A stretch of 64,000 nucleotides of DNA from an uncultured Acidobacteriota bacterium (GCA_964408025.1 CAYOXX010000004.1:4148-68147), one strand, 5' to 3'; positions 11,113 through 51,657 are shown, counted from the first letter of the stretch. Numbers and translations: made by a program. Notes: generated by a model not told the origin, from the letters alone.

Positions 11113-11141
11113 ATCCGGGGCGAGACGGGACGAATGGCGCT

Positions 11142-12026: not shown

Positions 12027-12045
12027 AACAGAGAGTAATTAATCC

Positions 12046-19266: not shown

Positions 19267-20385
19267 ATGGGGCAACGCGATTCAGAGAGCATCTATCTCT
19301 CCCACTTCGGCTTGAGGCGCAATCCTTTCGCGCTGACGCCAGACCCAAGGTTCTTCCTCAAGAGCAAGACGCACCTGGACGCCCTCGCCTCCCTTATCTA
19401 CGGCATCAAGGAACGCAAAGGATTCATACTGCTCACCGGCGAGGTCGGTACTGGCAAGACCACTGTGCTGCGCACGCTGCTGGAGAGCATCGACCCGAAC
19501 GTGCTCTTCTCCCACATAATCAACACCGACGTCTCCTTCATCCAGCTCCTGCGAATGGTCTGCATCGACTTCGGGCTGCCGGTTGACAACCGCACCCGAG
19601 TTCAGCTGGTCGATGATCTATACGATTTCCTTGTCGAGACCAGATTGGAAGGCAGAACCGCTTTGCTGATAGTAGACGAGGCGCAGAACCTGAGCCCGAA
19701 GGTTATGGAGAGCCTGAGGATGCTCTCCAATCTCGAAACGCCGCGCGAGAAGCTCCTGCAGATTCTGCTCTGCGGTCAACCGGAGCTCAGAAAAAAGCTG
19801 ACGCTCGGCTCCATGCGCCAGCTGGCACAAAGGATCGCAGTAAACGCAGAGCTGTCGCCCCTTTTACCCCGGGAGGTGGAGCGCTACATCTACCACCGCC
19901 TCAAGATCTGCAACTGCAGCGGCGACAAGCTCTTCCCCAACCCGATCGCCGCCCGCATAGCCGGGCTTTCGCGGGGAATTCCCCGGCTTATAAACATCCT
20001 CTGCGACGCCTGCCTGATGCTCTCTTACGCCGAGGGGAAGCGCGTAGTGAGCCGAGATGTGCTCAGAATCGCGGCCGACCAGTGTATGGTTATCGACACG
20101 CAGCCGGGAGCGGAGGACGCCTCGCCGGTGCCCTTATGGGCCACTGGACACGAAAAGATGGAGGAAAATACGGGCGCCAAGAAGGGCTTTGTTCTACGAA
20201 GCCTCGCCGCGATCGTCGCCCGTGTGGCGGCGATATTCCTCATCTTCCTCTTGATCGTCGTCTCAGGCGTACTGGCCCGACCGGCCGACCCGGCAGCCCC
20301 CTCGAAACCGCCAGAGGTGATGTGTAATAATGATTCCGCCAGCCGCTCGTCGCCGGAGATGGAGGTGGGGGTGGGGGGCGACTGA
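19267..20385 (+). CDS. ExeA-like AAA ATPase of the exosortase/PEP-CTERM polysaccharide locus type
   Basis: It has Walker A (LTGEVGTGKTT) and Walker B (LLIVDEAQNL), and is ExeA/GspA-like. It is the first gene of the polysaccharide locus. Confidence 0.65.
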   Translation: MGQRDSESIYLSHFGLRRNPFALTPDPRFFLKSKTHLDALASLIYGIKERKGFILLTGEVGTGKTTVLRTLLESIDPNVLFSHIINTDVSFIQLLRMVCIDFGLPVDNRTRVQLVDDLYDFLVETRLEGRTALLIVDEAQNLSPKVMESLRMLSNLETPREKLLQILLCGQPELRKKLTLGSMRQLAQRIAVNAELSPLLPREVERYIYHRLKICNCSGDKLFPNPIAARIAGLSRGIPRLINILCDACLMLSYAEGKRVVSRDVLRIAADQCMVIDTQPGAEDASPVPLWATGHEKMEENTGAKKGFVLRSLAAIVARVAAIFLIFLLIVVSGVLARPADPAAPSKPPEVMCNNDSASRSSPEMEVGVGGD

Positions 20386-20419
20386 TCTCAAGAAGCAACC
20401 ACAACGGAGTGACAAGCCG

Positions 20420-21202
20420 ATGGGAAAACTATGGGATGCTCTCAAGAAGGCCGATAGGGAGGGCGACGCGAACTACGTAAGCAAGTACGAAGGCTCCCTG
20501 GAGGACCCCCCCGCCGAATACGCCGGCGATCTCGATCTCTGCCTGACGACGAACATGGCCGAGGAGTACCGCAAGCTCATGAAGATCCTGAGCAAGTTGG
20601 GTCAGGAGAAGAACCTGGAGATCACGATGCTGATGGTGACCAGCTCCAGCGCCGGCGAAGGCGTCACCACAATCGCCGCCTCGCTGGCGGCGGGGATCGC
20701 CAAAGACATGCGCAACAGAAGCGTGCTGCTGGTTGACTCCAACCTCCGCACCCCCGACATCCACACGATGTTCAACCTGCTGCCCGCGCCTGGCCTGATC
20801 GAGGTGGTGACCGACTTCGAGCACCGCAAGGAGTTCCTGAGGGCCAGCCCGATCCGCCTGGTGCCCAACCTCCACATCCTCACCGCCGGCAACATCGACA
20901 TCATCGACTCCAACCCGCTCGAGATCCTGGAGAGCAAGCGCCTGATCACCTTCCTCGACGAGCTTCGGGGCGCCTACGACTTGGTTGTTCTCGATTGCCC
21001 CCCCGTCAACCCGTACTCCGACGCCCTCAGCCTCGCTCCCCACCTGGACGGCGCAATCCTGGTGGTCGACGCCGTCTCTACCCGCTGGGAGGTTGTTCGG
21101 AAGGCGCAGGAGAACCTTGATTTCGCCAACGCTAATCTGCTGGGAGTGTTGCTCAACAAGCGTAAGTTGGTCATCCCGAAATCAGTCTACAAACGTCTGT
21201 AA
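20420..21202 (+). CDS. polysaccharide-locus tyrosine-kinase-like P-loop ATPase (EpsG/CpsD-like, MinD/ParA fold)
   Basis: It has a deviant Walker A context (MLMVTSSSAGEGVTTIAASLAAG) and a Walker B context (LVVLDCPPV). The start at MGKLWDALKK is preferred over the longer ORF from 20330. Confidence 0.65.
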   Translation: MGKLWDALKKADREGDANYVSKYEGSLEDPPAEYAGDLDLCLTTNMAEEYRKLMKILSKLGQEKNLEITMLMVTSSSAGEGVTTIAASLAAGIAKDMRNRSVLLVDSNLRTPDIHTMFNLLPAPGLIEVVTDFEHRKEFLRASPIRLVPNLHILTAGNIDIIDSNPLEILESKRLITFLDELRGAYDLVVLDCPPVNPYSDALSLAPHLDGAILVVDAVSTRWEVVRKAQENLDFANANLLGVLLNKRKLVIPKSVYKRL

Positions 21203-21233
21203 ACGAACCTGGAGAAAGGGGCAGCTAGTAGCC

Positions 21234-22262
21234 ATGAGAAATCGATTCGGAAACCTCAGCCTCGCCGTCGCTGCCGCTGTCGTCGCGTCGGCTCTGCTCG
21301 GCAGCGGCTGCGCGACCGGAATCAGGCCGCCGGCGATCGAGATCCCGGAAGACGAGGCGTTCGACCCCTACGCCCCCGTACCGCCGCCGCCTCACTACTC
21401 GATCCGCCGCGGCGATACGCTCAGCGTCCACTTCCTCTACAACCCGGAGCTCAGCGTCGAGGGGGTTCCGGTCAGAGAAGACGGCATGATCACGTTGCCG
21501 GTGATCGGCGATATCGCCGCTGCCGACCAGTCGCCGGACCAGCTAACTGAGGACGTGCGCCAGCGCTACCTTCAATATGTTGAGGAATCGGGATACGGCA
21601 CCTACCTGCGCGCCGGCGACGAGTTGCAGCTGCGGTTCACCTACAACCCGCAGCTCAACCAGCGCTCATTCGTGCGGCCCGACGGCAGGATCTCCCTGTT
21701 GCTGCTCGGAGACCTGGAGGCCGACGGCATTCCGTTCACCGAGTTCGAGCAGACAGTTCGCGAAGGGTACGCCGAATACATCCAGGGCCCGGAGCTGTCG
21801 GTATACCTGCTGTCGACCAGGACCAAGCGGATCTATACCGATCCGGGGGACATCACCGTCCTCGTCTACACCACTCAGCCCAAGCAGGTCTTCGTCGGCG
21901 GCGAGGTAATGGAGGCGACGATCATCGAATTCCACGATTGGCTGACACCCTGGCAGGCGATCATGCAGGCCAAGGGTTTGACGGAGCGCGCCGATCCGCG
22001 CAGGGCGATCTACATCACGCGCGACGCCGACGGTCGCGCGGTGGCCACTAAGCTCGACCTCTCGGCCTACCTACACAGCGGAATGCGCAACACCAGCCTC
22101 TATATGCGCCACGGCGACGTGCTGATCATCCCGCGTACCGGCGTGTCCAAGCTCAACATGTTCGTCGAACAATACATCCGCAACAACCTCCCGATCCGTA
22201 CAAGCTTCGTCTTCTCCTACGTGGTAAACAGGTACGGTGGTGGTGGAGGTATCATCTATTAG
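21234..22262 (+). CDS. polysaccharide export protein (Wza/EpsE-like) with a duplicated Poly_export domain
   Basis: It has a lipoprotein signal (ALLGSGCATG). Two Poly_export-like repeats are present (IRRGDTLSVHFLYNPELS...LPVIGDI and LRAGDELQLRFTYNPQLN...LLLLGDL). The start is at 21234 rather than 20985. Confidence 0.7.
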   Translation: MRNRFGNLSLAVAAAVVASALLGSGCATGIRPPAIEIPEDEAFDPYAPVPPPPHYSIRRGDTLSVHFLYNPELSVEGVPVREDGMITLPVIGDIAAADQSPDQLTEDVRQRYLQYVEESGYGTYLRAGDELQLRFTYNPQLNQRSFVRPDGRISLLLLGDLEADGIPFTEFEQTVREGYAEYIQGPELSVYLLSTRTKRIYTDPGDITVLVYTTQPKQVFVGGEVMEATIIEFHDWLTPWQAIMQAKGLTERADPRRAIYITRDADGRAVATKLDLSAYLHSGMRNTSLYMRHGDVLIIPRTGVSKLNMFVEQYIRNNLPIRTSFVFSYVVNRYGGGGGIIY

Positions 22263-22269
22263 GTCAGAC

Positions 22270-22908: not shown

Positions 22909-22949
22909 TGGAAGGGAGCATCCGCTACTATTGCCTGGGGAGGTAAAAG

Positions 22950-24389
22950 ATGGCAACTGAGATGACAGATCAGACCAAAGCTGGCCGCCCGGGCCTCACG
23001 GCGCGGGATGTCCTCCACTCGACTTTCAAGCGCCTGCGCCTCTTCATCGGCATTCCGCTGGTAATAATCATCCTGATCGTCGCCGGCTCGCTGCTACTGG
23101 CGCCGGTATACGAGGCGAGCACAGACATCAAGATCGAAGACACCAACTACGAGAATGTCGGGTTGATAACTACGCGCTACGATTCGCGCAGCGACATTTT
23201 CCTGCGCAAGGAGCAACAGATCAATTCGGAGATCAACATCGCGCGCAGCGAGACGGTGCTGGAGGCGGTGGTGCGCCGCCTGGGCCTCTGGGAGCAGTGG
23301 ACACCCTCGAGCGGATCGGAGGCCGAAAGGATCAGTTCGGCCGTGAGCATTCTTCGAGACGAGCTCGAAGTCGAACCCTCGCTCGATTCGTGGGTTATCA
23401 CCATCAGGTACCGCAACCACGATCCGGCACTCGCCACAGAAGTCGTAAACGCGATGGCCGAAGAGTACATCAACCACAACATCAGCATGCACACGCTGCC
23501 ACAAGCAGCCCAGTTCTACGAGGAAACAATCGAGAGCGAAAGGGAAGAGCTTCGGCAGCTGCAGACGAGATTCCGGGAACTTGTGGAGAGCGAACAGGTG
23601 GTCGATTACGACGTCGAAATCGAGCAGAAGCTCGTCACCCGCACCGTCTTCGAGGAGCAGTTGACAGACGTCCAGACGCAGATCCTGAGCAGGGCGGCCA
23701 AGATACGCAGGATTAACGAATTCATGCGCGAGAACGTCGACGTGCTGATCCCGATCCCCGAGATCGCGCAAGTGCGCATCATCGAAGACCTCAATTACCG
23801 AATGGCCAACCTAAGGCTGGAGCTGGAGGCGTTGTTAGAGAAGTATACCGAGCGCGAACGCCGGGTCCAAACTGTGAGGGCGCAGATCGAGTCCGTCGAG
23901 GCTCAGATACGTGAGGAGGTGCGCAATTTCATCAACCAGGAGACGACGGAGCTGCGCAGGTTCGAGGCTGAAGAAGAAGCACTGGTGGAGGCGATCGCCG
24001 AGATCGACCAGGGGCTGATTAGCCTGCAGTCGGTGCAAGCGCCTTTCCAGAACCTGGTGCAGCAGATCGCAGACAAGCAGGAGATCATTAGCCAGCTCTC
24101 GCGGCAGTATACTGACAGCCTCCACGCCGGCCAAACCGATACCCGTTTGGCTAGGGCGAGGCAGATCAGCCCTGCGCTGGTGCCGCAGAAGCCGGTTTTC
24201 CCTGACCTGGGGCTGAACCTGCTGATAGGGATCCCGATTGCGCTCCTGATCGGCCTGTCGGTCATCATCTTCCTCGACTTCTTCGACCGCACCTTCCCGA
24301 CGCCCGAGAAGGTCGAGCGGGTGACCGGATTGCCGGTGCTGGCCACAATCAACTATACCGACCCGAAGAAGCAGCCAGTTTTCAGGTAA
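22950..24389 (+). CDS. polysaccharide chain-length determinant protein (Wzz/EpsF-like)
   Basis: An N-terminal TM (LFIGIPLVIIILIVAG) is followed by a long coiled-coil periplasmic region and a C-terminal TM (LLIGIPIALLIGLSVIIF). Confidence 0.7.
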   Translation: MATEMTDQTKAGRPGLTARDVLHSTFKRLRLFIGIPLVIIILIVAGSLLLAPVYEASTDIKIEDTNYENVGLITTRYDSRSDIFLRKEQQINSEINIARSETVLEAVVRRLGLWEQWTPSSGSEAERISSAVSILRDELEVEPSLDSWVITIRYRNHDPALATEVVNAMAEEYINHNISMHTLPQAAQFYEETIESEREELRQLQTRFRELVESEQVVDYDVEIEQKLVTRTVFEEQLTDVQTQILSRAAKIRRINEFMRENVDVLIPIPEIAQVRIIEDLNYRMANLRLELEALLEKYTERERRVQTVRAQIESVEAQIREEVRNFINQETTELRRFEAEEEALVEAIAEIDQGLISLQSVQAPFQNLVQQIADKQEIISQLSRQYTDSLHAGQTDTRLARARQISPALVPQKPVFPDLGLNLLIGIPIALLIGLSVIIFLDFFDRTFPTPEKVERVTGLPVLATINYTDPKKQPVFR

Positions 24390-24437
24390 GCCCTTTAGGA
24401 ACAGCTTTTTCGCCGGTCGAGGGGAACGATTGAGGCA

Positions 24438-25946
24438 GTGGCCGGTAGAGGAGTAGTAATGGGAACGGCGGTAAGTCGAGCGCGGGGGAATGGGATTCTC
24501 TCGGCCGTTCTGGTCGGCGCCTTTTTCGGTATACTACCTGCTGCCATTCTCCTGGCTACACCGCTTCTGCCCTTCAGGTGGTATCTATTCGCCGTCCTCC
24601 TGCTCGGCGCCGTGGCCCTTGTCCTCGTCTTCCGCAATAACAGGCTCTTCCACATCGGCCTGCTGGCCTTCTCCCTCTGCCTCAACCTCGACATCCATAT
24701 CGTCACATTGCCGATGGTGAGCTACCAATCCCTGTACGGGTACATCATCCCAATTACTCTCTTCCCGCTGATCTTTCTTTACGTTCGCCGTATTTGGGAA
24801 TTCTGGGCCGACAAGGAGCGGCGCGAGCCGATGAAGCGCGCCATGCTGCCGCTGGCCGTATTCGCCGCATTCTGCCTGGTCAGCATTTTGCCAAGCGGGT
24901 CGCCAGAGCACACGCGATACGAACTCTTCGCCCTGGCCCAGAGTTTGCTCATCTACTACTATCTCGCCGGAAATATCCGCACCCGCAAAGAGGTGCGCAT
25001 AATCGTCTACGCGCTCATCGCCGGCGTCGCACTGCAGGCGGTGCTGGCGACGCTGCAGTACCTCACCGGCTCTTACCTCGGTCTCGGGATATTCGGCGAA
25101 TCGGAACGGCAATTCGGCGAGATGGTCAGCCTGTTGTCCATCACCCGAGTTTCGGGCACGATGGGGCACCCCAACTCGCTGGCCATTTATCTGGAATTCC
25201 TGCTCCCGGTATCCCTGGCGGCGGCGCTGACAAGCAGGGCGGGACCCAAACGCTGGCTCCTGATGGGAATCGCCGCGTTCGGTGTACTGGCACTGATATT
25301 CACTCTCTCCCGGGCGGGATTGTTAGTAAGTGTTTTCTCCTTGATTACCGTGCTGCTAGTCTGGGGAAAGAGAAACCGCCGCCTGGGATTCGTCCTCGCG
25401 GCGATTCTGGCCTGCCTGGCTATCGGTATGGCAATATTCTCGCTCGTCGAGAACCCAATCAAAGCGCGGTTTTTCAAGGACCGCTACCAGGCCGCGTACA
25501 GCCGCCTGCCGATGATGTCGGTGGCCTTCCGGATGATCGAGGACAACTTCCTCTTCGGCGTCGGGCTCAACACATACACGTGGGTTGCGCCGCGTTACGA
25601 TTCCACGACCGAGAAAATCTCCCGCATCTTCCCCCTGCCGGTGCACAACATGTACCTACTGATGCTGGCGGAGATCGGCATATTCGGTTTCCTGGCCTTC
25701 ATTGTGTTCATGATTACCCTGCTAACGAAGGGCTTGAAAATCGCCAGGGCAGCGGATAAGGAGATGGCCCTGATCGGCCTGGGAATAACCATGGGAATCC
25801 TCGCCTTCTCCATTCACGGAATGGTCGACGTAAACCACATATCCAAGAACTTCACCTTCTGGCTACTCGCCGGCACACTCGTCGGCATCTGGAACCTCCT
25901 GCGCAGGAAGCCCGTTTCCGCCGGCCTTCCCAACCATACCGAATAG
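24438..25946 (+). CDS. O-antigen ligase/polymerase-like membrane protein (Wzy_C domain)
   Basis: It has about 12 TM helices and a Wzy_C-type loop (FTLSRAGLLVSVF...). Confidence 0.65.
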   Translation: MAGRGVVMGTAVSRARGNGILSAVLVGAFFGILPAAILLATPLLPFRWYLFAVLLLGAVALVLVFRNNRLFHIGLLAFSLCLNLDIHIVTLPMVSYQSLYGYIIPITLFPLIFLYVRRIWEFWADKERREPMKRAMLPLAVFAAFCLVSILPSGSPEHTRYELFALAQSLLIYYYLAGNIRTRKEVRIIVYALIAGVALQAVLATLQYLTGSYLGLGIFGESERQFGEMVSLLSITRVSGTMGHPNSLAIYLEFLLPVSLAAALTSRAGPKRWLLMGIAAFGVLALIFTLSRAGLLVSVFSLITVLLVWGKRNRRLGFVLAAILACLAIGMAIFSLVENPIKARFFKDRYQAAYSRLPMMSVAFRMIEDNFLFGVGLNTYTWVAPRYDSTTEKISRIFPLPVHNMYLLMLAEIGIFGFLAFIVFMITLLTKGLKIARAADKEMALIGLGITMGILAFSIHGMVDVNHISKNFTFWLLAGTLVGIWNLLRRKPVSAGLPNHTE

Positions 25947-26228
25947 CCGAAACCCGCCCCAATGCGCGGCGCACCCGCTCCCTATGTGGCCAGCCGGCAG
26001 GCCTTTGTCTCGCCGGCGCACCGAATCGACATGTCCACCCGCTCCGGGAGTTCCCCGGAAACGGTTTACGGTTTTCACTGTCTTACTGGAGGGATCACCG
26101 TTTCCACATCCTGAAATCCCGGGACATCCGAGAAATCAGCACCGTATTTTGGGGCAATTCCTGAAACTACACCAGTTGACCGCGGATTGGGTATCGCCTA
26201 CACTTTCGGAAAGCCAGAAGGTTTGTAG

Positions 26229-27311
26229 ATGGTTCTCCTGAGAACGCTTGTTGTGGCGACGAAACGCGGCTTAAGCACCCTGGCGACCGGCCTCTCCATG
26301 CGAACGGGCGTGCCGGTCGGCAAGCCCACGATGGTCTACATCCAGGTGACCGATAAGTGCAACTCGCGCTGCCCCATGTGCGACATCTGGAAGCGCTACG
26401 ACACAGTCCGGCACATAGAGTTCGAGATCATCAAGAAGAGGATCGACGACATCCACGACTGGCTCGGGCGAACCCACATTCAGCTGGGGACCGGCGAGCC
26501 GTTTCTCCATCCAGACATCATGAAGATCGTCGAGTACGGCAACTCCAAAGGGATGCTGATGGGCACCGTCACCAACGCCCTTTTGATCAACGATAGAATA
26601 GCCCGCGGCATCATCGCCAATAACTTCTTCAACCTGAACATCTCACTGGACGGCGTCAAGCCGGAAACGCACGCCTTCACGCGCGGCATCCCCAACGCCT
26701 ACGACAGAGTGATGGAAGCTATCGACAGGCTGCTGTTCTACAAGAAAGAGCTCAACGGCGGCACAAGGATCATGCTCAAGCCGATAATATTCAATGGCAA
26801 CATCGACCAGCTGATTCCGCTCGTCGAGTTCGCCAAGGAGAAGGGATTGAGCGGCGTCAACTTTCAGCCGGTTCAGCTCATCAACGAGCAGTGCAGGAAG
26901 ATGCTCGTGTTTGAAGACCCCGAAAAGCTACGCGGCACAATCGCCGAGCTGAAAGAGATGAAGAAGAGGGGCTACCCGATTCTCAACACCGACCGCGAGC
27001 TCGACGCCTTTATTCAGTACTTCGAGAAGCCTGACCGCAGGCCGCCGCTTCTGGACAAGAAGTGCCCGGTCGGCTACTCGAACCTCTGGGTACTCGACGG
27101 CGGCGTCGTCCATTTCTGCACGCTCATAGATGCGCCGGTGGGCCACGTGAATGACTTCGGCAGCTTCAAGAAGCTATGGCGCTCCGGCGCGGCCAAGAAG
27201 GTGAGGAAAAGAATCGCCGCCTGCAAGCGCCCCTGCCTGGCGGTCTGCCTCATCAGAAGAACCCTGCGGGAGCAGATCAAGCGCTTCCTCACCTTCATGA
27301 GGAGTCATTGA
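26229..27311 (+). CDS. radical SAM protein with C-terminal SPASM-like cysteine cluster
   Basis: It carries a CxxxCxxC motif (CNSRCPMC) and a C-terminal Cys-rich region (CPVGYSNLWVLDGGVVHFC...CKRPCLAVC). The start may instead be the internal Met at about 26298. Confidence 0.7.
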   Translation: MVLLRTLVVATKRGLSTLATGLSMRTGVPVGKPTMVYIQVTDKCNSRCPMCDIWKRYDTVRHIEFEIIKKRIDDIHDWLGRTHIQLGTGEPFLHPDIMKIVEYGNSKGMLMGTVTNALLINDRIARGIIANNFFNLNISLDGVKPETHAFTRGIPNAYDRVMEAIDRLLFYKKELNGGTRIMLKPIIFNGNIDQLIPLVEFAKEKGLSGVNFQPVQLINEQCRKMLVFEDPEKLRGTIAELKEMKKRGYPILNTDRELDAFIQYFEKPDRRPPLLDKKCPVGYSNLWVLDGGVVHFCTLIDAPVGHVNDFGSFKKLWRSGAAKKVRKRIAACKRPCLAVCLIRRTLREQIKRFLTFMRSH

Positions 27312-27514
27312 GTCAGCCCCGCACGGATAAGCCGGCTGTTACCTTCTCCCTATTCGTCCACAAACCTGTGCGAGGGCATCGGCCAAGTTGGTTACCGGCC
27401 GCTTCAGTATCGCCATGGCGCCGCGCGACGAGTGGGTATTGCCGGGGTAGTCAGCGGGAGTCGTTCCCGACGTCGATGGAAGAATGGCCCAAGAATCAGC
27501 AGTTGAGTTTATAA

Positions 27515-29044
27515 TTGCGGGGCGGCCAGAGAGGAAAACTAGGGGACTTAATCCAAATGGCGCGACCTCCTGAGGACATGGTCTCGCGTCCGCAAAGTGC
27601 CCGCACACTGATAGCGGACCCAAGTCTAACCGGATCACGATTTGTCCGAAACAGTATCCTTCTAATCGCCATTGAGATGTTTAGCAAGCTCCTCGGCCTG
27701 ATCTTGTTCGCGTTCATAGCCCGCTTTCTAGGAGCGAATGAACTTGGACTATATGCTTTCGCCATCGCACTTGCCAACTTCTTTGCGATCGCTACTAGGT
27801 TCGGCTTCGAGAAGCGCGTAGAAAAGGAGGTTGGCCGCAACACCCGCCTGCTCTATTCCTATTTCAGGGAGATTAATTCAATTAAAGCCATCTTTTCCAT
27901 TTGCTCTCTTGCCTTGCTCTGGCTATTACTTCAGCTCGTCGGCGAAGCCGACTCGCCAATGGTGATGCTGATCGCATGCTTCGTTTTCACCTTCACATTC
28001 CTCGAGTTCACTAACGCGCTCTTCCGCGGCATCGGCAAGGCTGAATTCGAGGTGTTTGCGCGAACCGTTTTCTCTTTGCTCAACACAACTCTGGGCATAG
28101 CCGCTCTTTTCGCCGGCTGGGGGCTTCAAGGAGTGGTGACGGCGCAACTGATCAGCGTCTCCACGGCGATACTCTATTGCTTCTTCATCGTCAGGAAAGT
28201 TGCCATTAAAACCAGCTACAGTGGGAACTGGCGCACACTCTGGAGTCACGTGAAAGCCACCGCCCCATTCGCCGTCATGCTATTCATCCTTTACTTCGGA
28301 AATCAAATCACCATCGTTCTCATACAGGCCCTGACGAGAAGAGAGGAAGTGGGTTACTTCGCAGCCTCGATGAGGCTTTTCGAAAGCCTCACTCCCATCC
28401 CAGCCGCTATTGCGGGAGCCTTCCTGCCTGTAATCAGCAGGCTCTATAGCACTTCAGTGGACGGGTTCGCGCAGATCCTCCGCTTCGCCGTGAAATACCT
28501 TTTCGTAATCTCGTCTCCGATTGTGCTCGGCGCAATATTAATCGCTCCGCAGGCGATCCCCCTCCTTTACGGAGAGGAGTTCATGCCGTCGGTTATAGTC
28601 CTTCAGATCTTACTGGTCGCACTGATCTTCAGCTTCTGGAACAACTCCATGGCGAGTGCGTTGATCGCTAGCAACCGCGAGAAGTTACTTATCTGGTTGT
28701 TCGCCTGCGGAGCTGTTTTTCATGTCGGGGCTAATTTATTGCTAATCCCGATGCTCTCGTTCGTCGGCGCCGCTTGGGCGATGCTGGCCAGTTGCGCAGT
28801 TCTCTTCATCGGCAACCTCGTTTGCCTGCGACGTCACCTGAAGATCGGCGTCTTCTTCAGGGACCTGGCTTCACCTGCCCTCTGCGCGGCAGCCATGGGG
28901 ATAGTGGTTTTCACAATCCGCGACTGGAATATCGGCCTCGTGATCCCGATCGGAGCGATTGTCTATATCGCAGCACTATTTCTAACCGGTACGGCCAGCA
29001 GGCGCGATCTGGACAGCCTCAAAGGCACAATCGGGGCCCCGTAA
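27515..29044 (+). CDS. polysaccharide flippase (Wzx/MOP-family oligosaccharide flippase)
   Basis: It has about 12-14 TM helices and a Wzx-type N-terminal region (SILLIAIEMFSKLLGLILFAFIARFLGANELGLYA). The start may be at 27557 (MARPPE). Confidence 0.65.
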   Translation: MRGGQRGKLGDLIQMARPPEDMVSRPQSARTLIADPSLTGSRFVRNSILLIAIEMFSKLLGLILFAFIARFLGANELGLYAFAIALANFFAIATRFGFEKRVEKEVGRNTRLLYSYFREINSIKAIFSICSLALLWLLLQLVGEADSPMVMLIACFVFTFTFLEFTNALFRGIGKAEFEVFARTVFSLLNTTLGIAALFAGWGLQGVVTAQLISVSTAILYCFFIVRKVAIKTSYSGNWRTLWSHVKATAPFAVMLFILYFGNQITIVLIQALTRREEVGYFAASMRLFESLTPIPAAIAGAFLPVISRLYSTSVDGFAQILRFAVKYLFVISSPIVLGAILIAPQAIPLLYGEEFMPSVIVLQILLVALIFSFWNNSMASALIASNREKLLIWLFACGAVFHVGANLLLIPMLSFVGAAWAMLASCAVLFIGNLVCLRRHLKIGVFFRDLASPALCAAAMGIVVFTIRDWNIGLVIPIGAIVYIAALFLTGTASRRDLDSLKGTIGAP

Positions 29045-29087
29045 GCCTATCCGACCACCGGCCGCCGAGGGAGATCACGAGTTCGCG

Positions 29088-30038
29088 CTAAGCGCGCTTG
29101 CGGCGGAAGAACAGATACGTCCCCTTCCTGAAGAGCCTCCTATACAGAGGTCCCAATAGGGCTTTAAGCGCGGAAACGATCGGCTTCCTGGCCACCCCGT
29201 ATGCGTAGCGGATACGGTAGGGTATGAAGGCGAGCTCGAGGTCGGCTATCTCAGCCATCCTCACAACAGACTTGAAGACGTAACAATTGATATGCTCGAG
29301 CGGGGCCACCGGGTTGAGGGAGTTCCTGGAGCCGGTGGGCGCGCTCCAGTCGCCGCGCTTCAGCTTCCGCCTTATTCCGTTGCCCTCTGGAACGCTGATC
29401 TTAATCAGGCCCTCGGGGCGCAATCCCCGCTTCAGGTAAAGTAGTGTTTCCAGCGGTCGCGGGATGTGCTCGAAGACCTGCTCGGCGTTGATGAAATCGA
29501 ATTCGGAGCCCGGAATCTCCTCCCAGCCAATCGCCTCGACGCCAAGCCCGCGGGCGTGTTCGATACGCGCTGCGGAGAGCTCGCTGCCGCGAGCGTGGCA
29601 GCCGAACGCCTTGGCCATCAGGCACCACTCGCCCCAACCCATGCCGAAATCGAGGAAGCTCAGGCGGCCTGGCTCGCCGCCGAGCCAGGCGATGACCATC
29701 ATTATCTCTCTCGCCGCGGTGGCGCGGCTGGCGAGGCCGGTCTCCTGAAACTTGCGCCCGAACGCCTTCGCCGGGTCGATCCATTCCTCGTACAGCTTCC
29801 CCATCATCTCATCGCTGAGGATGTTCCTCTGGAACACCAGTCCGCAGTGGCTGCACTCTTCCAGAACGTATTCAGCTCCCTCCAGGTACTCGAACTCCAC
29901 ACCGCCCTGGGGTGAATAGAACGTCTCCAGGTAACTTCTTATCGGTTCCTCGAGGAAGCGACAGCGATAGATGGTTTCGAATTCCGCCGCCCCGCAGGCC
30001 GGGCAGGCAATCCGTTCGACAAAACTATCCAATTGCAT
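29088..30038 (-). CDS. SAM-dependent methyltransferase with N-terminal zinc-ribbon (CPACG...CSHCG)
   Basis: It has the methyltransferase motifs LSFLDFGMGWGEW and an acidic loop. A GGAGG RBS sits 8 nt before the ATG at 30038, so the longer ORF to 30116 was rejected. Confidence 0.65.
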   Translation of the reverse strand: MQLDSFVERIACPACGAAEFETIYRCRFLEEPIRSYLETFYSPQGGVEFEYLEGAEYVLEECSHCGLVFQRNILSDEMMGKLYEEWIDPAKAFGRKFQETGLASRATAAREIMMVIAWLGGEPGRLSFLDFGMGWGEWCLMAKAFGCHARGSELSAARIEHARGLGVEAIGWEEIPGSEFDFINAEQVFEHIPRPLETLLYLKRGLRPEGLIKISVPEGNGIRRKLKRGDWSAPTGSRNSLNPVAPLEHINCYVFKSVVRMAEIADLELAFIPYRIRYAYGVARKPIVSALKALLGPLYRRLFRKGTYLFFRRKRA

Positions 30039-30386
30039 CCCGTCGCCTCCCGAGCGGTGGGGAAAAGGACACCCCAGTATATTTGAGCCAGCGGGGCCCT
30101 TCAACAGCGCCGTCAACTCCGCAGCTCGTATACATCTGATCGCATGCGCGTTTGCATTGCGATCTTCAACTCAAGCAGATGTGGGTGTTCAGTCTCTTTT
30201 GCTTCACCGTGGGGAATGAGAATAAAAAAAATATGTTCGATCACGATCTCGATAGCCGGAAGGGAGTACTGCCCGAGCCATCATCAGAGCGGCGATCACC
30301 CCACCACCCTCCAGCCCTAATCCCCAGTTCATGCGAGCAGTATAGACGGCCCCACCCCAGGGGACCGGTTAAACCGTCGGCGTGGA

Positions 30387-31946
30387 TTAGCTTTTCCCGC
30401 GAGAGGCGATGAGGCTCTTGGATGCCCTGTATGCGCCTCTGACATAAGGTTTGACGGCGTCGGGGATCATAGACTTCAGCTTTTCCCGCAGCCGCTCGCC
30501 GCGCGGAACCAGTGTCTTGTGTAGGACCTTCTTCCTGCGCCGCAGCTCGCGCTCGTCGAAGTCGGGGGTCCTGATGAAGAACCCGTCGACCGCCGAGAAC
30601 CTGAACATGGAGTCGATGCTGGAGTAGCTGTGCGCCGGCAGATACCCCTCTTCCAGGCAAAGCTTGTAGAGGTTCGTCCCCGGGTACGGCTGGGCGACGA
30701 GACAGTGGAATCTGATGGCCGGGGCTATTTCCTTTAATCTTGAATAGAATCTCAAGCCGTTCTCGAACCGCTCTCTCGTTTCGCCCGGGTAGCCGAAGAT
30801 GACGAAAACATAGCACTCGATATCGTACTTACGTATCAGTTTCACCATTTCGACCGCCTTGGAGAGGTCCAGCCTCTTGTTCATCAGCTTGAGCATCTCC
30901 TCGTCGCCGTGCTCCAAGGCCAGCGTAAGGCTCAGGCAATTAGAACGGCTCGCGAGAGCCATGAAGCCGTCGTCCAAGGCGTCGATGCGCAAGCCGTTCG
31001 GCGTCGACCAATAGATCTGCGCGGAGCCCGGACAGGCGTTTCTTTCCACGATGCCTTCGAGGATCTCCAGGGTCCTGTCCTTGTCTATGGTGAAGTTGTC
31101 GTCGTCGAATTCGATGTGGTTGACGCCGTAATCTTCCACCAGGTAGTCGATCTCCTCCAGGACCAGTCGGGGCGAACGGCGTCGCCATTTGTAGCCGCAG
31201 ACCGGATGAACGGAGCAGAAATTACACCTATACGGGCAGCCCCTGGAGGTGATGATGCTGGCGGTGATCCTCCCGCGGCTCCCGCCCCGCTGCGATGCGG
31301 AACAGTAGTCGCCGAAGGGCAACAGATGCCTGGCAGGTTTCGGCAGGACGTCGAGGTCGTCTACGTACTCCCCCTTCACGTCCGTCGGCGAGCATTCGCT
31401 TTCCGGGCCGTAAACAGGATCGGCGACCACGACGCCCGGCGGGAGAATCCGTAACCGATCATCGAGGTATTCAAGCAATCTGAGGAGAGTGAATTCCCCC
31501 TCGCCGATGACGAGATAATCGGCCGCGGAGCTGATGGCCAGCTCGGGCTGCGTGCTCGGGTGGACCCCGCCCATGACCAGGGGCACGCTCGGAAGAGCGG
31601 CCTTGATCTTCCCGGCCAGCCGGTGGCACTCCGGAGCCATCTGCGAGAACGGCACGGACAGACCGATCAAGTCGGTGTCGCCCGGTATCCTGGCCAGGGT
31701 TTCTCGATCGCTGAGCCCGACCCGCCACCACTTGTCGCCGAGCCGCGCAGTGTTGCTGCGCCCCTCGAACAGCGCGTCGATTACCGTTACCTCGTGTTTG
31801 CCGAATTCGATCAGGGCGGCGGCGATGGAAAGGATCCCCATGCACTCGCTGAGGATGACCTTGTCTTTGCTGGAGAAATTGAAGGGCGGATTGATTAGAG
31901 TGATTTTCTTGCCGCCTCGATTCCCGGGCTGCACGAATTGGGGCAC
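30387..31946 (-). CDS. B12-binding-domain radical SAM protein (class B radical SAM family)
   Basis: The N-terminal half is cobalamin-binding-like. It also carries a radical SAM CxxxCxxC motif (ITSRGCPYRCNFCSV). Confidence 0.7.
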   Translation of the reverse strand: MPQFVQPGNRGGKKITLINPPFNFSSKDKVILSECMGILSIAAALIEFGKHEVTVIDALFEGRSNTARLGDKWWRVGLSDRETLARIPGDTDLIGLSVPFSQMAPECHRLAGKIKAALPSVPLVMGGVHPSTQPELAISSAADYLVIGEGEFTLLRLLEYLDDRLRILPPGVVVADPVYGPESECSPTDVKGEYVDDLDVLPKPARHLLPFGDYCSASQRGGSRGRITASIITSRGCPYRCNFCSVHPVCGYKWRRRSPRLVLEEIDYLVEDYGVNHIEFDDDNFTIDKDRTLEILEGIVERNACPGSAQIYWSTPNGLRIDALDDGFMALASRSNCLSLTLALEHGDEEMLKLMNKRLDLSKAVEMVKLIRKYDIECYVFVIFGYPGETRERFENGLRFYSRLKEIAPAIRFHCLVAQPYPGTNLYKLCLEEGYLPAHSYSSIDSMFRFSAVDGFFIRTPDFDERELRRRKKVLHKTLVPRGERLREKLKSMIPDAVKPYVRGAYRASKSLIASRGKS

Positions 31947-32735
31947 CTGGCTCCGCCTTCTGCAAATTCAATTCATGTAAAATATAGTTAGCATCTACTC
32001 ACGCGCGTGGGCTCGAATTTCAGTATGCGCACCGTAACACTGAGGGGGTTATCAATCCAGCCGGAAAACGGCAAGCCCCCTGAACTGATCCGACGGATTG
32101 TGGCCGGGGGAGCCGCGAGTGAAGGGGGAACGGCCAGTAAGCGATCTTACCGTTATGCCGGCAGCAGACATCGAATTCCCTTTTTCCTTACCCGCTTCCG
32201 CCAGCACCACCATCATAAATCAAGCCCTAGCGGAGGCTGTAATTGCTCAAAAACCATCCAACGGTCTGGTGGACGTATGACTGAGCAAAAGACGCGAAGA
32301 GAGGAAGCATCGGGTACTCCGGGCACCCAGGGTCGCTACGTCAAGCACTGGGCCGTCCTGGCGGTGATTTTCCTCATCTTGTCGGCGGACGAGGCGGCGG
32401 CCATTCACGGACTGACTATCCACCCGATTCTGACCGCTTTACGACATCTAGGCTGGAGGAAACGCTGGAATGGTCGGCCTGACCGTTTTCATAATGGCCT
32501 TAGTTGATTACATCGCGGTCGAATGCGGGAACGTCAACTTGACGTTCAGCAGCAGGATAAAAGGCTGCGCCGATCTCCGCGACCCGTAAGGATTTGACCG
32601 CGCAGGCATTTCTAGGGCACACTTTAAATAAAGTATGTATGAGGAATTCCCGCGCTTCCGCTGTGCGATGCCCGGGACGATCAGAACAGCCCATGCCGGT
32701 GTCACGACCCGGCGCGTGGAAAGGCGAGGGACGAG

Positions 32736-33986
32736 ATGGGCGGCAAGCGGAAGGTGATCGGCTACCTCGGCCATATCCTCCCCATCCTCTCCGAGACCTT
32801 CGTAGTGCGCGAGATCGTAGCCCTCCGCGACCTGGGCGCGGAGGTGAAGGCGTTCAGCGTCCACAGGCCTGACAAAACCGCGATCCACCCCGAGGCACCC
32901 GGCCTCGCCGAAGAGGTCGGGATCCTCGCGCGGCCCCTCAACCCGCTCTTTTGGCTGGCTCATCTCTTCTTCGCCGTGCGACACCCGATCCGCTACTTCC
33001 GCTGCCTCTGGCGCTACGTTTTAACGTCCGGGGAGCCCCCGCGGCGGCGCCTGCGTTGCCTCACACAGTTCGCCGTTGCACCGTTCGCTGCCCTGTTGAT
33101 GCACAGAGCCGGCGTTGAGCACCTCCACGCCCACTTTGCCAACACTCCTGCCGGCGTGGCGATGATGACCGCCGGGCTGGCCGCCATCCCCTTCTCCTTC
33201 ACGGCCCACGCGCACGACATCTTCGTCGATAACCTCCTACTGCCGGCCAAGCTCGAGAGCGCCGCTTTCGTCGCCACCATCAGCCGCTTCAACCGCCGCT
33301 ACCTGCGCGACCGCTACACGGAAGCGGAGAACGCGAAGATCGAAATCGTCCGCTGCGGCGTCGACACATCGGCTCTCTCTCCCCAGCCGCACGCGGCTCA
33401 CGAACCACCCGTCGTCCTAGCGGTTGGACGCCTGGTCGACTTCAAGGGATTCGAGACGCTGATCGAGGCTTGCGCCAGGCTAAAAGACGGGTCGACGGAG
33501 ATCCTCTGTTACATCGCCGGCGACGGCCCCGAGCGCGGGCGCCTGGAGCGCACGCGCGAGGATCTCGGCCTCAGCGACCGCGTTCGCCTCCTGGGAAGGA
33601 TGCTGCCCACGGATCTGCTCGAGTATTACCGACGCGCTGACCTGATGGTGGCGCCGTCCTGCGAGCGCGACGGCTTCGCCGACGGCATACCGGTGGTGCT
33701 GATGGAGGCGATGGCGATGGAAATCCCGGTAGTCTCCACACGCGTATCCGGCATCCCCGAGCTGGTGCGCGACGGCGAGACCGGCCTCCTGGTCGAGCCG
33801 GACGATCCGCAGGGCCTGGCCGAGGCCATCGCCCACCTGTTGAGCGACAGGGCCCTGGCCCGCAGGCTGGCGGTCGCCGGCAGAGAGCTAGTCGACGCGG
33901 AGTTCAACATTCGCCGCAGCGCCGAACGTATGCACGAATTGTTAGTAGCCACGGAACGCAAGCCCACGGAAGGCGCGACGTCATGA
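32736..33986 (+). CDS. glycosyltransferase family 4
   Basis: It has the GT4/GT1 C-terminal motif (PVVLMEAMAMEIPVVSTRVSGIPELVRDGETGLLVEP). Confidence 0.75.
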   Translation: MGGKRKVIGYLGHILPILSETFVVREIVALRDLGAEVKAFSVHRPDKTAIHPEAPGLAEEVGILARPLNPLFWLAHLFFAVRHPIRYFRCLWRYVLTSGEPPRRRLRCLTQFAVAPFAALLMHRAGVEHLHAHFANTPAGVAMMTAGLAAIPFSFTAHAHDIFVDNLLLPAKLESAAFVATISRFNRRYLRDRYTEAENAKIEIVRCGVDTSALSPQPHAAHEPPVVLAVGRLVDFKGFETLIEACARLKDGSTEILCYIAGDGPERGRLERTREDLGLSDRVRLLGRMLPTDLLEYYRRADLMVAPSCERDGFADGIPVVLMEAMAMEIPVVSTRVSGIPELVRDGETGLLVEPDDPQGLAEAIAHLLSDRALARRLAVAGRELVDAEFNIRRSAERMHELLVATERKPTEGATS

Positions 33987-34858
33987 TCGGACGCTTTGTC
34001 GTAGTCAGTCCCTGCCGCAACGAGGAGCGGTTCATCGAACTGACGCTGAACTCGGTCGTCAGGCAGACTCGCCGCCCGGACCGCTGGATCATCGTCGACG
34101 ACGGCAGCAGCGATGCCTCCCTCAGGATCGTCGAGCGCTACGCCGCCGAGCACCCCTGGATCGAGCTCCTGCGGCTACCCGACAAGGGCAAGCGGCCGCC
34201 AGGCGCCCACGAGGCGGTCGCCTTCAACGATGGGATCAAGCACCTCGGCGACGATCCCTACGAGGTCATCGCCAAGCTGGACACAGACCTCGAATTCGGC
34301 TCCCAGGCTTTCGCCGAAGCCCTGGCCCACTTTGACGACGAGCGGGTCGGCCTCGCCGGCGGCATCACCTATCTGGTGGAGGGTGATAAGCTCGTCTCCG
34401 AGAGGCCGTCGCCCTCCCACGTCCCCGGCCAGGCCAAGTTTTACCGCCGCGCCTGCTTCGAGGATATCGGCGGTGTTCAGCCTGTCCTCGGCTGGGACAT
34501 CCTGGACGAGACAGACGCACGGCGCCGCGGCTGGCGCACCGTCGGCGACCGCGAGATCGTTTTCAAGACCTTCAGGCTACAGGGGGCTCGAACCGGCGCC
34601 GTCCATGGCCGCTACATCTATGGGCTGGGAGCCTACGCCATCGGCACCCACCCGCTCTTCGCCGTCGCCCGCGGCATCTTCCGCATGACCGAGCGGCCCT
34701 GGATCGTCGGCGGCCTCGGCTTCATCTGGGGATTCTTCGCCGGCTACTTCCACCCCGCTGTCAAGAGAATCGGCAACGTGGAGTTGATCCGCCACCTGCG
34801 CCGCGAGCAGCTATACAGGCTCTTCCACGGCAACCGCCTGCCGCCCGAGGAGGGCTAG
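33983..34858 (+). CDS. glycosyltransferase family 2
   Basis: It has a GT2 N-terminal signature (VVVSPCRNEERFIELTLNSVVRQTRRPDRWIIVDDGSSD). Its start overlaps the previous gene's stop. Confidence 0.75.
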   Translation: MIGRFVVVSPCRNEERFIELTLNSVVRQTRRPDRWIIVDDGSSDASLRIVERYAAEHPWIELLRLPDKGKRPPGAHEAVAFNDGIKHLGDDPYEVIAKLDTDLEFGSQAFAEALAHFDDERVGLAGGITYLVEGDKLVSERPSPSHVPGQAKFYRRACFEDIGGVQPVLGWDILDETDARRRGWRTVGDREIVFKTFRLQGARTGAVHGRYIYGLGAYAIGTHPLFAVARGIFRMTERPWIVGGLGFIWGFFAGYFHPAVKRIGNVELIRHLRREQLYRLFHGNRLPPEEG

Positions 34859-34860
34859 CA

Positions 34861-35649
34861 GTGAACGGGGCTGAAAGGGTAAACATCCTCGGAGCACCGG
34901 TGCGGGCGCACACAATCGATTCTCTCCTGGCTCACATGGAGGAGCTGATCTCGGCTCCCGGGACCGCCGTCGCCTACGCGGTCAACGCCCACGCCCTCAA
35001 CCTTACCTACCGCCATCCCGATTACCTCGAGGCGCTGAGACGTGCCGACCTGGTCTACGCCGACGGCGCCTCGCTGCAGCTCGCAGCCCGCGTGCTGGGC
35101 AGCCGCATTCCGGAGAAGCTGACCACCACTGACGTTTGGCCACGACTCTGCGACCTGGCGCGGCGCCGCGGCTATCGCTTTTTCCTTCTCGGGGGCGAGG
35201 AGGGATTGGCCGAACGCGTGAAGTCAAAAGCTCTCGAGCAGCACCCCGAACTGCGGATCGTCGGCACCCACCACGGATACTTCGACTTCGATGACGATCA
35301 TGTGATTTCGATTATCAACGATGCCCACCCCGACGTTCTCTGGGTCGGGATGGGCGATCCGCGGCAGGCCCTATGGTGCGAGAGCGTCAAGGAGCGGCTC
35401 GAGGTCGGCTTGGTGATCACCTGTGGCGGGATGTACAAGATCGTCTCCGGCGAACTCAAACGGGCCGGGGAAAAGTGGAGGAGGCGGGGCTTCGAGTGGG
35501 CCTATCGTCTTTTCCAGGAACCGAAGACCTGGCGCCGCTACCTGATAGGGCTGCCCGCATTTGGCTTCAGGGTGCTAGCGCAACGCTTCTGCGGGCACAG
35601 GCGGTCCTGGGATACCATGATAAACGGCGATGAAAATCCTCTTCCTTAA
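34861..35649 (+). CDS. WecB/TagA/CpsF-family glycosyltransferase (GT26)
   Basis: Its family-typical core reads VNAHALNL...ADLVYADGASLQLAARVLG...FLLGG...DVLWVGMGDPRQ. Confidence 0.7.
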   Translation: MNGAERVNILGAPVRAHTIDSLLAHMEELISAPGTAVAYAVNAHALNLTYRHPDYLEALRRADLVYADGASLQLAARVLGSRIPEKLTTTDVWPRLCDLARRRGYRFFLLGGEEGLAERVKSKALEQHPELRIVGTHHGYFDFDDDHVISIINDAHPDVLWVGMGDPRQALWCESVKERLEVGLVITCGGMYKIVSGELKRAGEKWRRRGFEWAYRLFQEPKTWRRYLIGLPAFGFRVLAQRFCGHRRSWDTMINGDENPLP

Positions 35650-36814
35650 CTATCACTACGACGTCGAGGGAATCGGCCGCGGCGCCGCGGCCCAGGTGCG
35701 CTCCATCGCCGCAGCCCTCGAGAGGCGGGGCCACCAAGTTGACCTCCGGTTTCAGGCGGCGAAGAAGGGGGGAGCCGCCGCGGGCGAGCCGCGCGAGGCA
35801 AAACAGATTGGCTGGCTGCGCCGATACGGGCATGTGCCGCGCCACCTGCTTCGCAATATTCCACTCGCCCGGGGGGAACGGCGCATCATCGACGAGACAC
35901 GTCCCGACGTAGTGATGGCCATCAACTCCTTTTGCAAGCTCTCTGCCTTGAAAGCCGCGCGCAGCCGACACATCCCTTTCGTGCTCTTTGCCGATGCGCC
36001 GATGGAATACGAATACTCGCTGTTTTTCGCCGAGTATTACCGTTACCCGATAATCAGCCGCTGGATTGAGGGTATCAACGTGCGCCGGGCCGACCGAGTG
36101 ATCTGCATTTCGGAAGTGCTCAAGGATTACCTGATGCGCTTCGCCCCCCCCGCGACGCGGCTGCACGTGGTGCCCAACGGCGTTGACCACCACCTCTTTA
36201 AGCCACGGCCGCCCGACGAGGAGTTGCAGAGGACCTTGCAACTCAACAACCGGATCGTCATCGGTTACGTCGGCAACTTCCTCTTCCTACCCGACGCGCA
36301 GCGGCTCGCCGGTGCGATCAAGACGGTCTGTGACCGCCGGCCCGAGGCGACCTTCCTCTTCGTCGGCGAAGGAGAAGCTGGCCAGGAGCTGAGGCGCATA
36401 GGAGAGGAACTCGGTGTCGGTGAACGGCTTATCTTCTCCGGCGCCGTGGACCACCTTCAGGTGCCCCGCTACATCAGCCTCATGGACATCGGCATCTGCC
36501 CCTACCGCGGCGACTACCTCTTCTACGGCTCCGCCCTCAAGCCGCTCGAATACATGGCCTCCGGCCTGCCGGTCGTGGCGCCGGCGCTGGGCCAGATCAA
36601 AGAGCTTATCGTCAACGGGCGCAATGGTCTCCTTTACCGCTGGGACGATTACGAAGCCTGGGCTACCAGACTGCTTTCGCTGACCGAAAATGGCGAACTG
36701 CGCCGGAGTCTCGGCGATATGGCGCGCAAGACAATCGAGGACAGCTGGACCGGGGACTTGCAGGCGGAACGTATCGAGCACGTACTGCAGCTCGCCGTCC
36801 AAGAATACAAATAG
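35630..36814 (+). CDS. glycosyltransferase family 4
   Basis: It has a GT4 C-terminal motif (EYMASGLPVVAPALGQIKELIVNGRNGLL). Confidence 0.7.
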   Translation: MKILFLNYHYDVEGIGRGAAAQVRSIAAALERRGHQVDLRFQAAKKGGAAAGEPREAKQIGWLRRYGHVPRHLLRNIPLARGERRIIDETRPDVVMAINSFCKLSALKAARSRHIPFVLFADAPMEYEYSLFFAEYYRYPIISRWIEGINVRRADRVICISEVLKDYLMRFAPPATRLHVVPNGVDHHLFKPRPPDEELQRTLQLNNRIVIGYVGNFLFLPDAQRLAGAIKTVCDRRPEATFLFVGEGEAGQELRRIGEELGVGERLIFSGAVDHLQVPRYISLMDIGICPYRGDYLFYGSALKPLEYMASGLPVVAPALGQIKELIVNGRNGLLYRWDDYEAWATRLLSLTENGELRRSLGDMARKTIEDSWTGDLQAERIEHVLQLAVQEYK

Positions 36815-51042: not shown

Positions 51043-51086
51043 GTCATGGGTCTACATTGATCATTCTCTATCGACATTTTCTATAA

Positions 51087-51284: not shown

Positions 51285-51308
51285 CAGTTATACTACCCAC
51301 TATTTAGC

Positions 51309-51572: not shown

Positions 51573-51657
51573 ATGATTTTTCTTACACTTGTCAAGCCGA
51601 AGTATTCCAAGGTGACTCTTTAATGATAGGATATTGAAAAGTTATTTTAAATCACTA

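Follow-up and report, generated by a model that had tools for sequence, protein, structure and literature searches.

We suggest that three soluble cytoplasmic enzymes, encoded in the variable centre of an exopolysaccharide (EPS) locus of an uncultured Acidobacteriota bacterium, tailor the sugars of that EPS before flipping and do so as independent functions, a reading to which we assign a probability of about 0.55. The locus is a 17.5-kb stretch (19267-36814) whose open reading frames (ORFs) were assigned through Pfam and NCBIfam to a Wzx/Wzy-dependent EPS system; it lies within the 64,000 nucleotides analysed here (the window). Two of the enzymes belong to the radical S-adenosylmethionine (SAM) superfamily, one of them with a B12-binding domain (class B), and the third is a SAM methyltransferase carrying a zinc ribbon:

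26229..27311, plus strand: twitch-type (truncated SPASM) radical SAM enzyme, 360 aa (Pfam Radical_SAM E=9e-20)
29088..30038, minus strand: class I SAM methyltransferase with an N-terminal Cys4 zinc ribbon, 316 aa (Methyltransf_23 49.8 bits)
30387..31946, minus strand: class B (B12-binding-domain) radical SAM enzyme, 519 aa (B12-binding 47.6 bits, Radical_SAM 72.2 bits)

All three genes are real at these coordinates, as an earlier reading of the sequence alone (the original prediction) had it: the ORF list, the Pfam matches and codon-position GC agree, and GC at third codon positions (GC3) is 0.78-0.84 in each, a host-like value typical of coding sequence and similar to that of the neighbours. 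None of the three proteins has a transmembrane segment. They are flanked by the Wzz/Wzy genes (22950-25946) and by a GT4/GT2/WecG/GT4 block of glycosyltransferase (GT) genes (32736-36814), so that the predicted placement between the polymerase/flippase region and the GT block is correct. The arrangement described around the flippase gene also holds: the twitch-type gene lies upstream of wzx across a 203-nt gap, and the methyltransferase and B12 enzyme genes, on the opposite strand, converge on the 3' end of wzx, which is 43 nt away.

Proposed Roles

From the domains, the folds and the genomic company of relatives we infer the following substrates and reactions. Each enzyme would act cytoplasmically on a repeat-unit sugar before Wzx flipping, the substrate being either a nucleotide sugar or an undecaprenyl-PP-linked oligosaccharide. 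The zinc-ribbon methyltransferase may add an O- or N-methyl group, with O-methylation of a sugar the most likely outcome. The B12 enzyme would perform radical chemistry on an unactivated sugar carbon, most likely methylcobalamin-dependent C-methylation, as GenK or Fom3 do, and less likely a cobalamin-independent dehydration/deoxygenation, as in AprD4. The twitch-type enzyme would abstract a hydrogen from a sugar C-H and, passing electrons to a single auxiliary Fe-S cluster, would then oxidise, decarboxylate or epimerise the sugar residue in the manner of BlsE, DesII, and BtrN.

Zinc-Ribbon Methyltransferase

The methyltransferase was predicted at 29088-30038 and indeed starts at an ATG at 30038, behind a GGAGG ribosome-binding site; Methyltransf_23 (49.8 bits, cutoff 27) places it in class I. 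Across 30 homologues the zinc-ribbon cysteines (C12, C15, C62, and C65) and motif I (DFGMGWG) are both conserved; the motif's D130, G134, and G136 never vary, and at least 90% of the sequences have F131, G132, and M133. The family is very large and unusually well conserved, with 1555 homologues whose identity stays at ~50% between bacterial phyla and in an archaeon. Both relatives whose surroundings were examined (55-56% identity) are encoded between GTs, with Wzx, Wzy, and sulfotransferase genes nearby. A sequence comparison of the enzyme with the PDB gave no match at E≤0.01. TylC3/TcaB9-type Zn-ribbon NDP-sugar C-methyltransferases likewise carry an N-terminal Cys4 zinc module before a class I methyltransferase fold; the 316-aa protein differs from them in having no Pfam Methyltransf_13/14 match, and the likeness is architectural only.

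B12-Binding Radical SAM Enzyme

The class B architecture is plain from the domain matches, with PF02310 B12-binding (47.6 bits, cutoff 32.1) N-terminal to a PF04055 core (72.2 bits, cutoff 29.5). The radical SAM cysteines C237, C241, and C244 are invariant in our alignment of the family (A1); an alternative GTG start at 31934 would give a protein of 515 aa. An N-terminal B12-binding Rossmann domain followed by a radical-SAM core is also the layout of the class B sugar methylases GenK, GenD1, and Fom3, and the AlphaFold2 model of the enzyme (pLDDT 92.4) matches the folds of TsrM, AprD4, MgmA, OxsB, TokK, and CysS, those other than AprD4 at E 1e-15 to 1e-21. It departs from these known enzymes in its low identity (16-19%), in reaching no curated class B cutoff and in being encoded among genes for surface polysaccharide assembly; a role for cobalamin is putative. 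A word-indexed search returned 722 homologues, the nearest non-self one at 55% identity, and by its sequence the enzyme belongs to a large uncharacterised family.

The association of this family with glycan genes recurs in its relatives. Gene neighbourhoods of relatives sharing 45-56% identity were read from one metagenome scan and five look-ups, a small, non-random sample in which six lineages could be told apart; a glycan context is found in four of the six, the window included. In one (L088/L089), GT4 genes are interleaved with three paralogous B12 radical SAM genes whose products share 25-52% identity with the window enzyme (L088 367-11491, from a genome of 35% GC), together with GT9, epimerase, and sugar-aminotransferase genes. 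In another (L090/L091), the relative is flanked by GT2 and GT4, with Wzy_C and Bac_transf genes nearby. Members of a marine lineage (L093-L099 and L104) are 86-93% identical to one another, yet their neighbours vary: GT2, CE4 polysaccharide deacetylase, AsnB, a SPASM radical SAM enzyme or a 651-aa NTP_transferase::radical-SAM fusion. This pattern resembles a conserved gene within hypervariable glycan islands. The matches listed in a contig scan with the B12 alignment were all paralogues of 25-33% identity, which are uninformative on context. A comparable setting is that of TIGR04295 ("B12_rSAM_oligo"), which we take to be the B12 radical SAM family of a putative rhizobial oligosaccharide cassette, itself uncharacterised. 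There, too, a B12 radical SAM gene is embedded among glycosyltransferases and methyltransferases, but the window enzyme, at 60.3 bits against a cutoff of 400, is not a member.

Twitch-Type Radical SAM Enzyme

Membership of the 360-aa enzyme in the radical SAM superfamily is clear (PF04055 71.9 bits, cutoff 29.5), the CxxxCxxC cysteines C44, C48, and C51 are invariant in family alignments, and the start codon at 26229 is backed by orthologue alignment. The original prediction called it SPASM-type, which holds in part. A SPASM domain proper is defined by the seven-Cys motif CX9-15GX4C-gap-CX2CX5CX3C-gap-C and by two auxiliary clusters, and the enzyme lacks this full set. Its first half-motif is kept as C-x12-G-x4-C, as in BtrN, SkfB, anSME, and DesII, where it likewise follows a CxxxCxxC core, whereas the second half is reduced to C-x3-C-x3-C. 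In a 40-member alignment five C-terminal cysteines rather than seven are conserved (C279, C297, C332, C336, and C340), and at 15.1 bits (E=0.028, residues 279-333) the Pfam SPASM match (PF13186) falls short of its 21.5-bit cutoff. The family profile aligns to the BtrN twitch domain (profile positions 259-337), with SkfB (2.9e-37) and BlsE as top matches. Because of the subthreshold Pfam score, the five cysteines, the reduced second half-motif, and the BtrN-twitch alignment, we place the C-terminal domain, on sequence grounds, in the SPASM/twitch superfamily as twitch-like; it probably holds one auxiliary Fe-S cluster.

The AlphaFold2 model (pLDDT 92.7) is closest to BlsE (PDB 7vob, E=1.9e-14, TM-scores 0.67/0.73), followed by SkfB, SuiB, DesII, and anSME, and BlsE is also the best solved relative by sequence (3e-11). 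BlsE is the radical SAM decarboxylase of cytosylglucuronic acid in the blasticidin S pathway (PDB 7vob; PMC3715490). The two proteins are similar in size, combine a radical-SAM core with a short Cys-rich C-terminal domain, and BlsE acts on a sugar acid; they share only 19% identity, however, the BlsE-family model TIGR04466 scores 51.2 bits against a cutoff of 400, so that the enzyme is not a member, and the BlsE substrate is a nucleoside antibiotic intermediate rather than a product of a Wzx/Wzy polysaccharide locus. Nor is the protein an anaerobic sulfatase maturase (anSME): its motif is incomplete, anSME ranks only midway among the fold and profile matches, and none of the window ORFs scanned carries a sulfatase domain. 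The original prediction had left room for both radical SAM proteins to fall within well-characterised non-glycan families. Curated NCBIfam models make the 360-aa enzyme neither an anSME nor a cofactor maturase, and for neither radical SAM protein was a family cutoff reached, those families included.

Beyond its close homologues, of which the word-indexed search found eight, the twitch-type enzyme has distant relatives that point to glycans. An exhaustive HMMER search gave 231 related representative clusters at E≤1e-30, many of them multidomain proteins of 600-1500 aa. Each of the ten relatives scanned from this set has two or three radical SAM modules in tandem, and a GT2 domain is present in three of them, P0345 and P0365 included. 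Three relatives at ~30% identity had readable contexts, and all three are in polysaccharide loci, two of them fused to glycosyltransferase domains. P0009 (30% identity) is flanked by GT4 genes with Wzy nearby; in P0012 (29%) the radical SAM domain is fused to an Alg13-like Glyco_tran_28_C domain, with an Alg14 gene immediately upstream in a Wzy/GT2 locus; and P0302 sits in a WecA/Wzm/Wzt ABC-transporter locus of O-antigen type, where Wzm and Wzt (with Wzt_C) are accompanied by a WecA-like GT, several GTs, a carbamoyltransferase, and a second fusion protein, radical-SAM::GT4.

Two side observations concern the same group of proteins. An O-antigen-type ABC-transporter locus (L180) encodes an 1179-aa GT2::radical-SAM/SPASM::radical-SAM protein (10001-13540) and a second, radical-SAM/SPASM::GT4 fusion (21904-23540). 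It also has separate radical SAM and SPASM genes and codes for an SxtJ-like protein and a carbamoyltransferase. P0294 and P0326 carry three tandem radical SAM/SPASM modules per polypeptide (1034-1431 aa; E ~1e-48 to 1e-66 to the window enzyme).

Alternative Explanations

Several observations weigh against EPS tailoring by all three enzymes. The genes look like three separate transcription units, with upstream gaps of 282 nt (twitch-type enzyme), 348 nt (methyltransferase), and 789 nt (B12 enzyme). The three families were found together in no other locus examined, which counts against an inherited module. All curated NCBIfam scores of the radical SAM enzymes are far below cutoff, and no function therefore transfers by homology. 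Neither cobalamin genes nor a riboswitch turned up in the window (ORF domain scans and Rfam). The nearest relative of the B12 enzyme (L007, 55%) stands beside an ECF sigma factor and GlmS, which is not a glycan context, and a further lineage (L103, L105, L106, and L107) is mostly non-glycan, with one member near GT4. The highest TM-score of the B12 enzyme (0.68/0.76) is to a non-methylase, AprD4. As for the twitch-type enzyme, its closest orthologues (61-73% identity) all lie outside glycan loci, in five loci: four (L002, L003, L004, and L006; 61-66%) between a minor-pilin/PilY1 (type IV pilus) operon and an exported TPR lipoprotein, and one (L001; 73%) between MatE and CBM9/DUF5916 genes. We considered whether the TPR neighbour might be a hidden glycan enzyme and rejected this, as it is an exported TPR lipoprotein whose sole hydrophobic segment is signal-like.

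The placement of these orthologues bears on a different explanation, in which the methyltransferase and the B12 enzyme alone tailor the EPS, and the twitch-type gene is a lineage-conserved stand-alone gene that landed between wzy and wzx; its substrate would then be another envelope component or a small molecule. We regard this as rather unlikely overall, though it accommodates a good deal. Besides occurring in two other, non-EPS contexts, the orthologous genes always stand alone, with gaps of 120-320 nt on either side and flanking DNA that alignments show to be unconserved between loci, and the gene in the window is likewise isolated, by 282 nt upstream and 203 nt before wzx. It has a promoter-like site of its own, a sigma-70-like TTGACC-17-TACACT at 26176..26204 (plus strand), 25 nt before the start, although this is a consensus match only and the region holds three such sites where 3.4 are expected, no excess over chance. 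The orthologue group also appears narrow, since only one cluster among 1.84 billion representatives exceeds 50% identity to the enzyme. What speaks for a role in the EPS instead is that the next-closest readable relatives all reside in polysaccharide loci, two of the three with a GT fusion, that GT2 fusions recur in P0345 and P0365, that sugars are the substrates of its best solved relatives, BlsE and DesII, and that GC3 matches that of the neighbours. Because its close orthologues lie elsewhere, the twitch-type enzyme is nonetheless the weakest link, its tie to this EPS being weaker than that of the other two enzymes. The predicted modification of the polysaccharide is supported by the B12 lineages, the contexts of the methyltransferase relatives, and the distant twitch relatives, but not by the closest twitch orthologues.

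The reaction of the B12 enzyme can also be read differently. Most characterised class B enzymes are methylases, and C-methylation of an unactivated sugar carbon, the most common class B chemistry, is our leading guess. It is unlikely, but the AprD4 resemblance keeps it in play, that the enzyme is instead a cobalamin-independent 1,2-diol dehydratase like AprD4, or HpnJ- or BchE-like, giving a deoxy or rearranged sugar. AprD4 is an enzyme of apramycin biosynthesis whose substrate is an aminoglycoside sugar and which the PDB lists as a 1,2-diol dehydratase; it gives the top PDB sequence match (6fd2, 2.8e-19) as well as the top TM-score, and the HpnJ and BchE models score about as high as the methylase models. 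The AprD4 sequence match, however, spans only residues 195-438, the radical-SAM core, the gene has no AprD3-like reductase partner next to it, and the best full-length NCBIfam model is a methyltransferase family, the Sden_1168 P-methyltransferase (NF038361, 168.6 bits, E=2e-49, residues 16-445). After it come ApyD, HpnJ, a lipid B12 radical SAM family, BchE, PhpK, and AprD4; of these, PhpK (TIGR04479) reaches 91.8 bits against a cutoff of 600 and AprD4 (NF033070) 90.6 against 500, so the enzyme belongs to neither. That same best model, and the JGI label "phosphonoacetaldehyde methylase" on one relative, would favour a P-methyltransferase of the Sden_1168/PhpK kind that puts a methylphosphonate or phosphinate on the glycan. 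We consider this highly improbable: 168.6 bits is far under the cutoff of 575, and the window ORFs scanned and the loci of relatives yielded neither PEP mutase (pepM) nor phosphonopyruvate decarboxylase.

Whether the genes form one module, as originally predicted, was examined by looking for the families in one another's company. A conserved methyltransferase/B12 pair was rejected, tblastn of 24 loci of B12 relatives having found the methyltransferase in L092 alone, which is from the same organism. A conserved B12 and SPASM pair was rejected as well, the SPASM radical SAM proteins beside the marine B12 relatives being 27% identical to the window enzyme over the core only, and a radical SAM gene near L007 is unrelated to the 360-aa enzyme. 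Given that the three families do not co-occur in the other loci examined, the module claim is not supported, and we read the enzymes as independent tailoring add-ons rather than one co-inherited unit.

Peptide and RNA Candidates

The original prediction also named a small modified peptide as its alternative, and no support for it emerged. SPASM/twitch enzymes are often peptide maturases, and the profile and fold matches of the 360-aa enzyme include SkfB, SuiB, CteB, and PqqE, which lends some initial appeal to maturation, by the radical SAM enzymes, of a small ribosomal peptide (RiPP) encoded nearby. Yet short ORFs of 25947-26228, 30039-30386, and 31947-32735 show no coding signature in codon-position GC, and both intergenic flanks singled out for such a search yielded no candidate substrate with a coding signal. 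Specifically, orf85 (25984-26241) has a flat GC1/2/3 of 0.56/0.56/0.52, and orf166 (166 aa, 32007-32507), with 0.57/0.55/0.58, is not a gene; neither has a Pfam or NCBIfam match. A precursor peptide or leader near the radical SAM genes was rejected on these grounds and on the unconserved flanks. The enzyme itself has ~43 residues before its radical-SAM core, with a single helix (residues 4-26) in the AlphaFold2 model, too few for an RRE/PqqD-like domain, which we therefore take to be absent; with neither RRE nor peptide partner, it differs from full SPASM maturases in these respects too. Domain scans of the EPS locus found no peptidase or RiPP transporter. Peptide maturation is thus most improbable, and we conclude that the radical SAM genes are not a RiPP system.

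A conserved RNA or riboswitch at the enzyme genes was likewise rejected: Rfam gave no match at E≤1 on 25800-32800, and orthologous flanks are unconserved. Over the whole window the only Rfam match at gathering score is a DUF3800-VII RNA at 49.8 kb.

Locus Organization

The EPS locus runs on the plus strand except for the methyltransferase and B12 enzyme genes. Sensor kinase and periplasmic binding protein genes bound it upstream, and a glycine cleavage operon on the minus strand bounds it downstream. In addition to the three enzyme genes it comprises the following:

19267..20385, plus strand: AAA ATPase related to the XrtA/PEP-CTERM-associated ATPase, first gene of the locus (TIGR03015 290.2 bits, cutoff 324.5; AAA_22)
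20330..21202, plus strand: BY-kinase-like P-loop protein of the polysaccharide tyrosine autokinase family (TIGR01007 110.5 bits, cutoff 108; pepcterm_TyrKin 116.5, below cutoff)
20985..22262, plus strand: Wza-like outer-membrane polysaccharide export protein, start codon uncertain (Poly_export E=6e-31; SLBB_2; pepcterm_export 136.9 bits, below cutoff)
22237-22908, plus strand: 223-aa ORF with coding-like GC3 and no Pfam or NCBIfam match
22950..24389, plus strand: Wzz/EpsF-like polysaccharide co-polymerase/chain-length determinant (Pfam Wzz; TIGR03017 EpsF 126 bits, below cutoff)
24438..25946, plus strand: Wzy-type polymerase/O-antigen-ligase-like membrane protein (Wzy_C E=7.8e-21)
27515..29044, plus strand: Wzx/MOP-family flippase (Polysacc_synt E=2.6e-19; Polysacc_synt_3)
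31947..32735, no strand: divergent intergenic region of 789 nt between the B12 radical SAM gene and the GT operon (no coding signal, no Rfam match)
32736..33986, plus strand: GT4 glycosyltransferase (Glycos_transf_1 E=1.9e-41)
33983..34858, plus strand: GT2 glycosyltransferase (Glycos_transf_2 E=8.8e-19)
34861..35649, plus strand: WecG/TagA/CpsF-family glycosyltransferase (PF03808 E=1e-52; TIGR00696 112 bits, cutoff 69)
35630..36814, plus strand: GT4 glycosyltransferase, last gene of the locus (domain scan)

The true start of Wzx is probably downstream of the TTG, because the exact sequence is absent from the protein collection. The long intergenic region 31947-32735 may be a shared regulatory region. 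For the machinery proteins PEP-CTERM-associated models are the best matches, yet all stay under their curated cutoffs (score/cutoff: ATPase 290/324.5, kinase 116/231, export 137/180, and chain-length 92/279); judged from these matches, the export machinery resembles the XrtA/PEP-CTERM-associated type. Pfam and NCBIfam scans of the window found neither an exosortase nor a priming phosphoglycosyl transferase (Bac_transf or Glycos_transf_4).

Other Features of the Window

Outside the EPS locus, a low-GC island (51000-55638; GC 0.32-0.39 against ~0.60) was probably acquired horizontally. It holds, on the minus strand, a 996-aa Eco57I/MmeI-like type IIG restriction-modification ORF (52648-55638) and a 269-aa ORF without a family match (51804-52613). 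The DUF3800-VII RNA (RF02967; 49791-49875, plus strand; 48.1 bits, gathering score 36.2) is located in a gap of 857 nt that lies directly upstream of this island. A SAM hydroxide adenosyltransferase gene (DUF62; SAM_HAT_N and SAM_HAT_C; 11142-12026, minus strand) adjoins that of an outer-membrane efflux protein.

Implications

Characterised cases of carbohydrate tailoring by radical SAM enzymes have so far come from antibiotic and nucleoside pathways, with GenK, AprD4, BtrN, DesII, and BlsE as examples. In the literature searched, we found no characterised radical SAM enzyme from an EPS, capsular polysaccharide or O-antigen locus, whether of the Wzx/Wzy or the ABC-transporter type. Taken alone, the genes described here would receive a generic annotation; the interest lies in an uncharacterised association that recurs, chiefly in the glycosyltransferase fusions. 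These glycosyltransferase::radical-SAM fusions are tractable starting points, as they point to a substrate, namely the acceptor or the product of the fused transferase. As a tentative wider proposal, it is possible that a widespread uncharacterised class of radical SAM enzymes modifies the surface polysaccharides of bacteria and archaea while their sugars are still lipid-linked or nucleotide-bound. Such enzymes might give C-methyl, deoxy, keto, decarboxylated or epimerised sugars through radical chemistry, and the class B family and the twitch/SPASM clade could have been recruited repeatedly, with twitch/SPASM members fused to GT2, GT4 or Alg13-like domains. If the enzymes do act on EPS sugars, this would explain unusual branched, deoxy or C-methyl sugars of environmental polysaccharides, and anaerobic radical chemistry would join the toolbox of glycan diversification.

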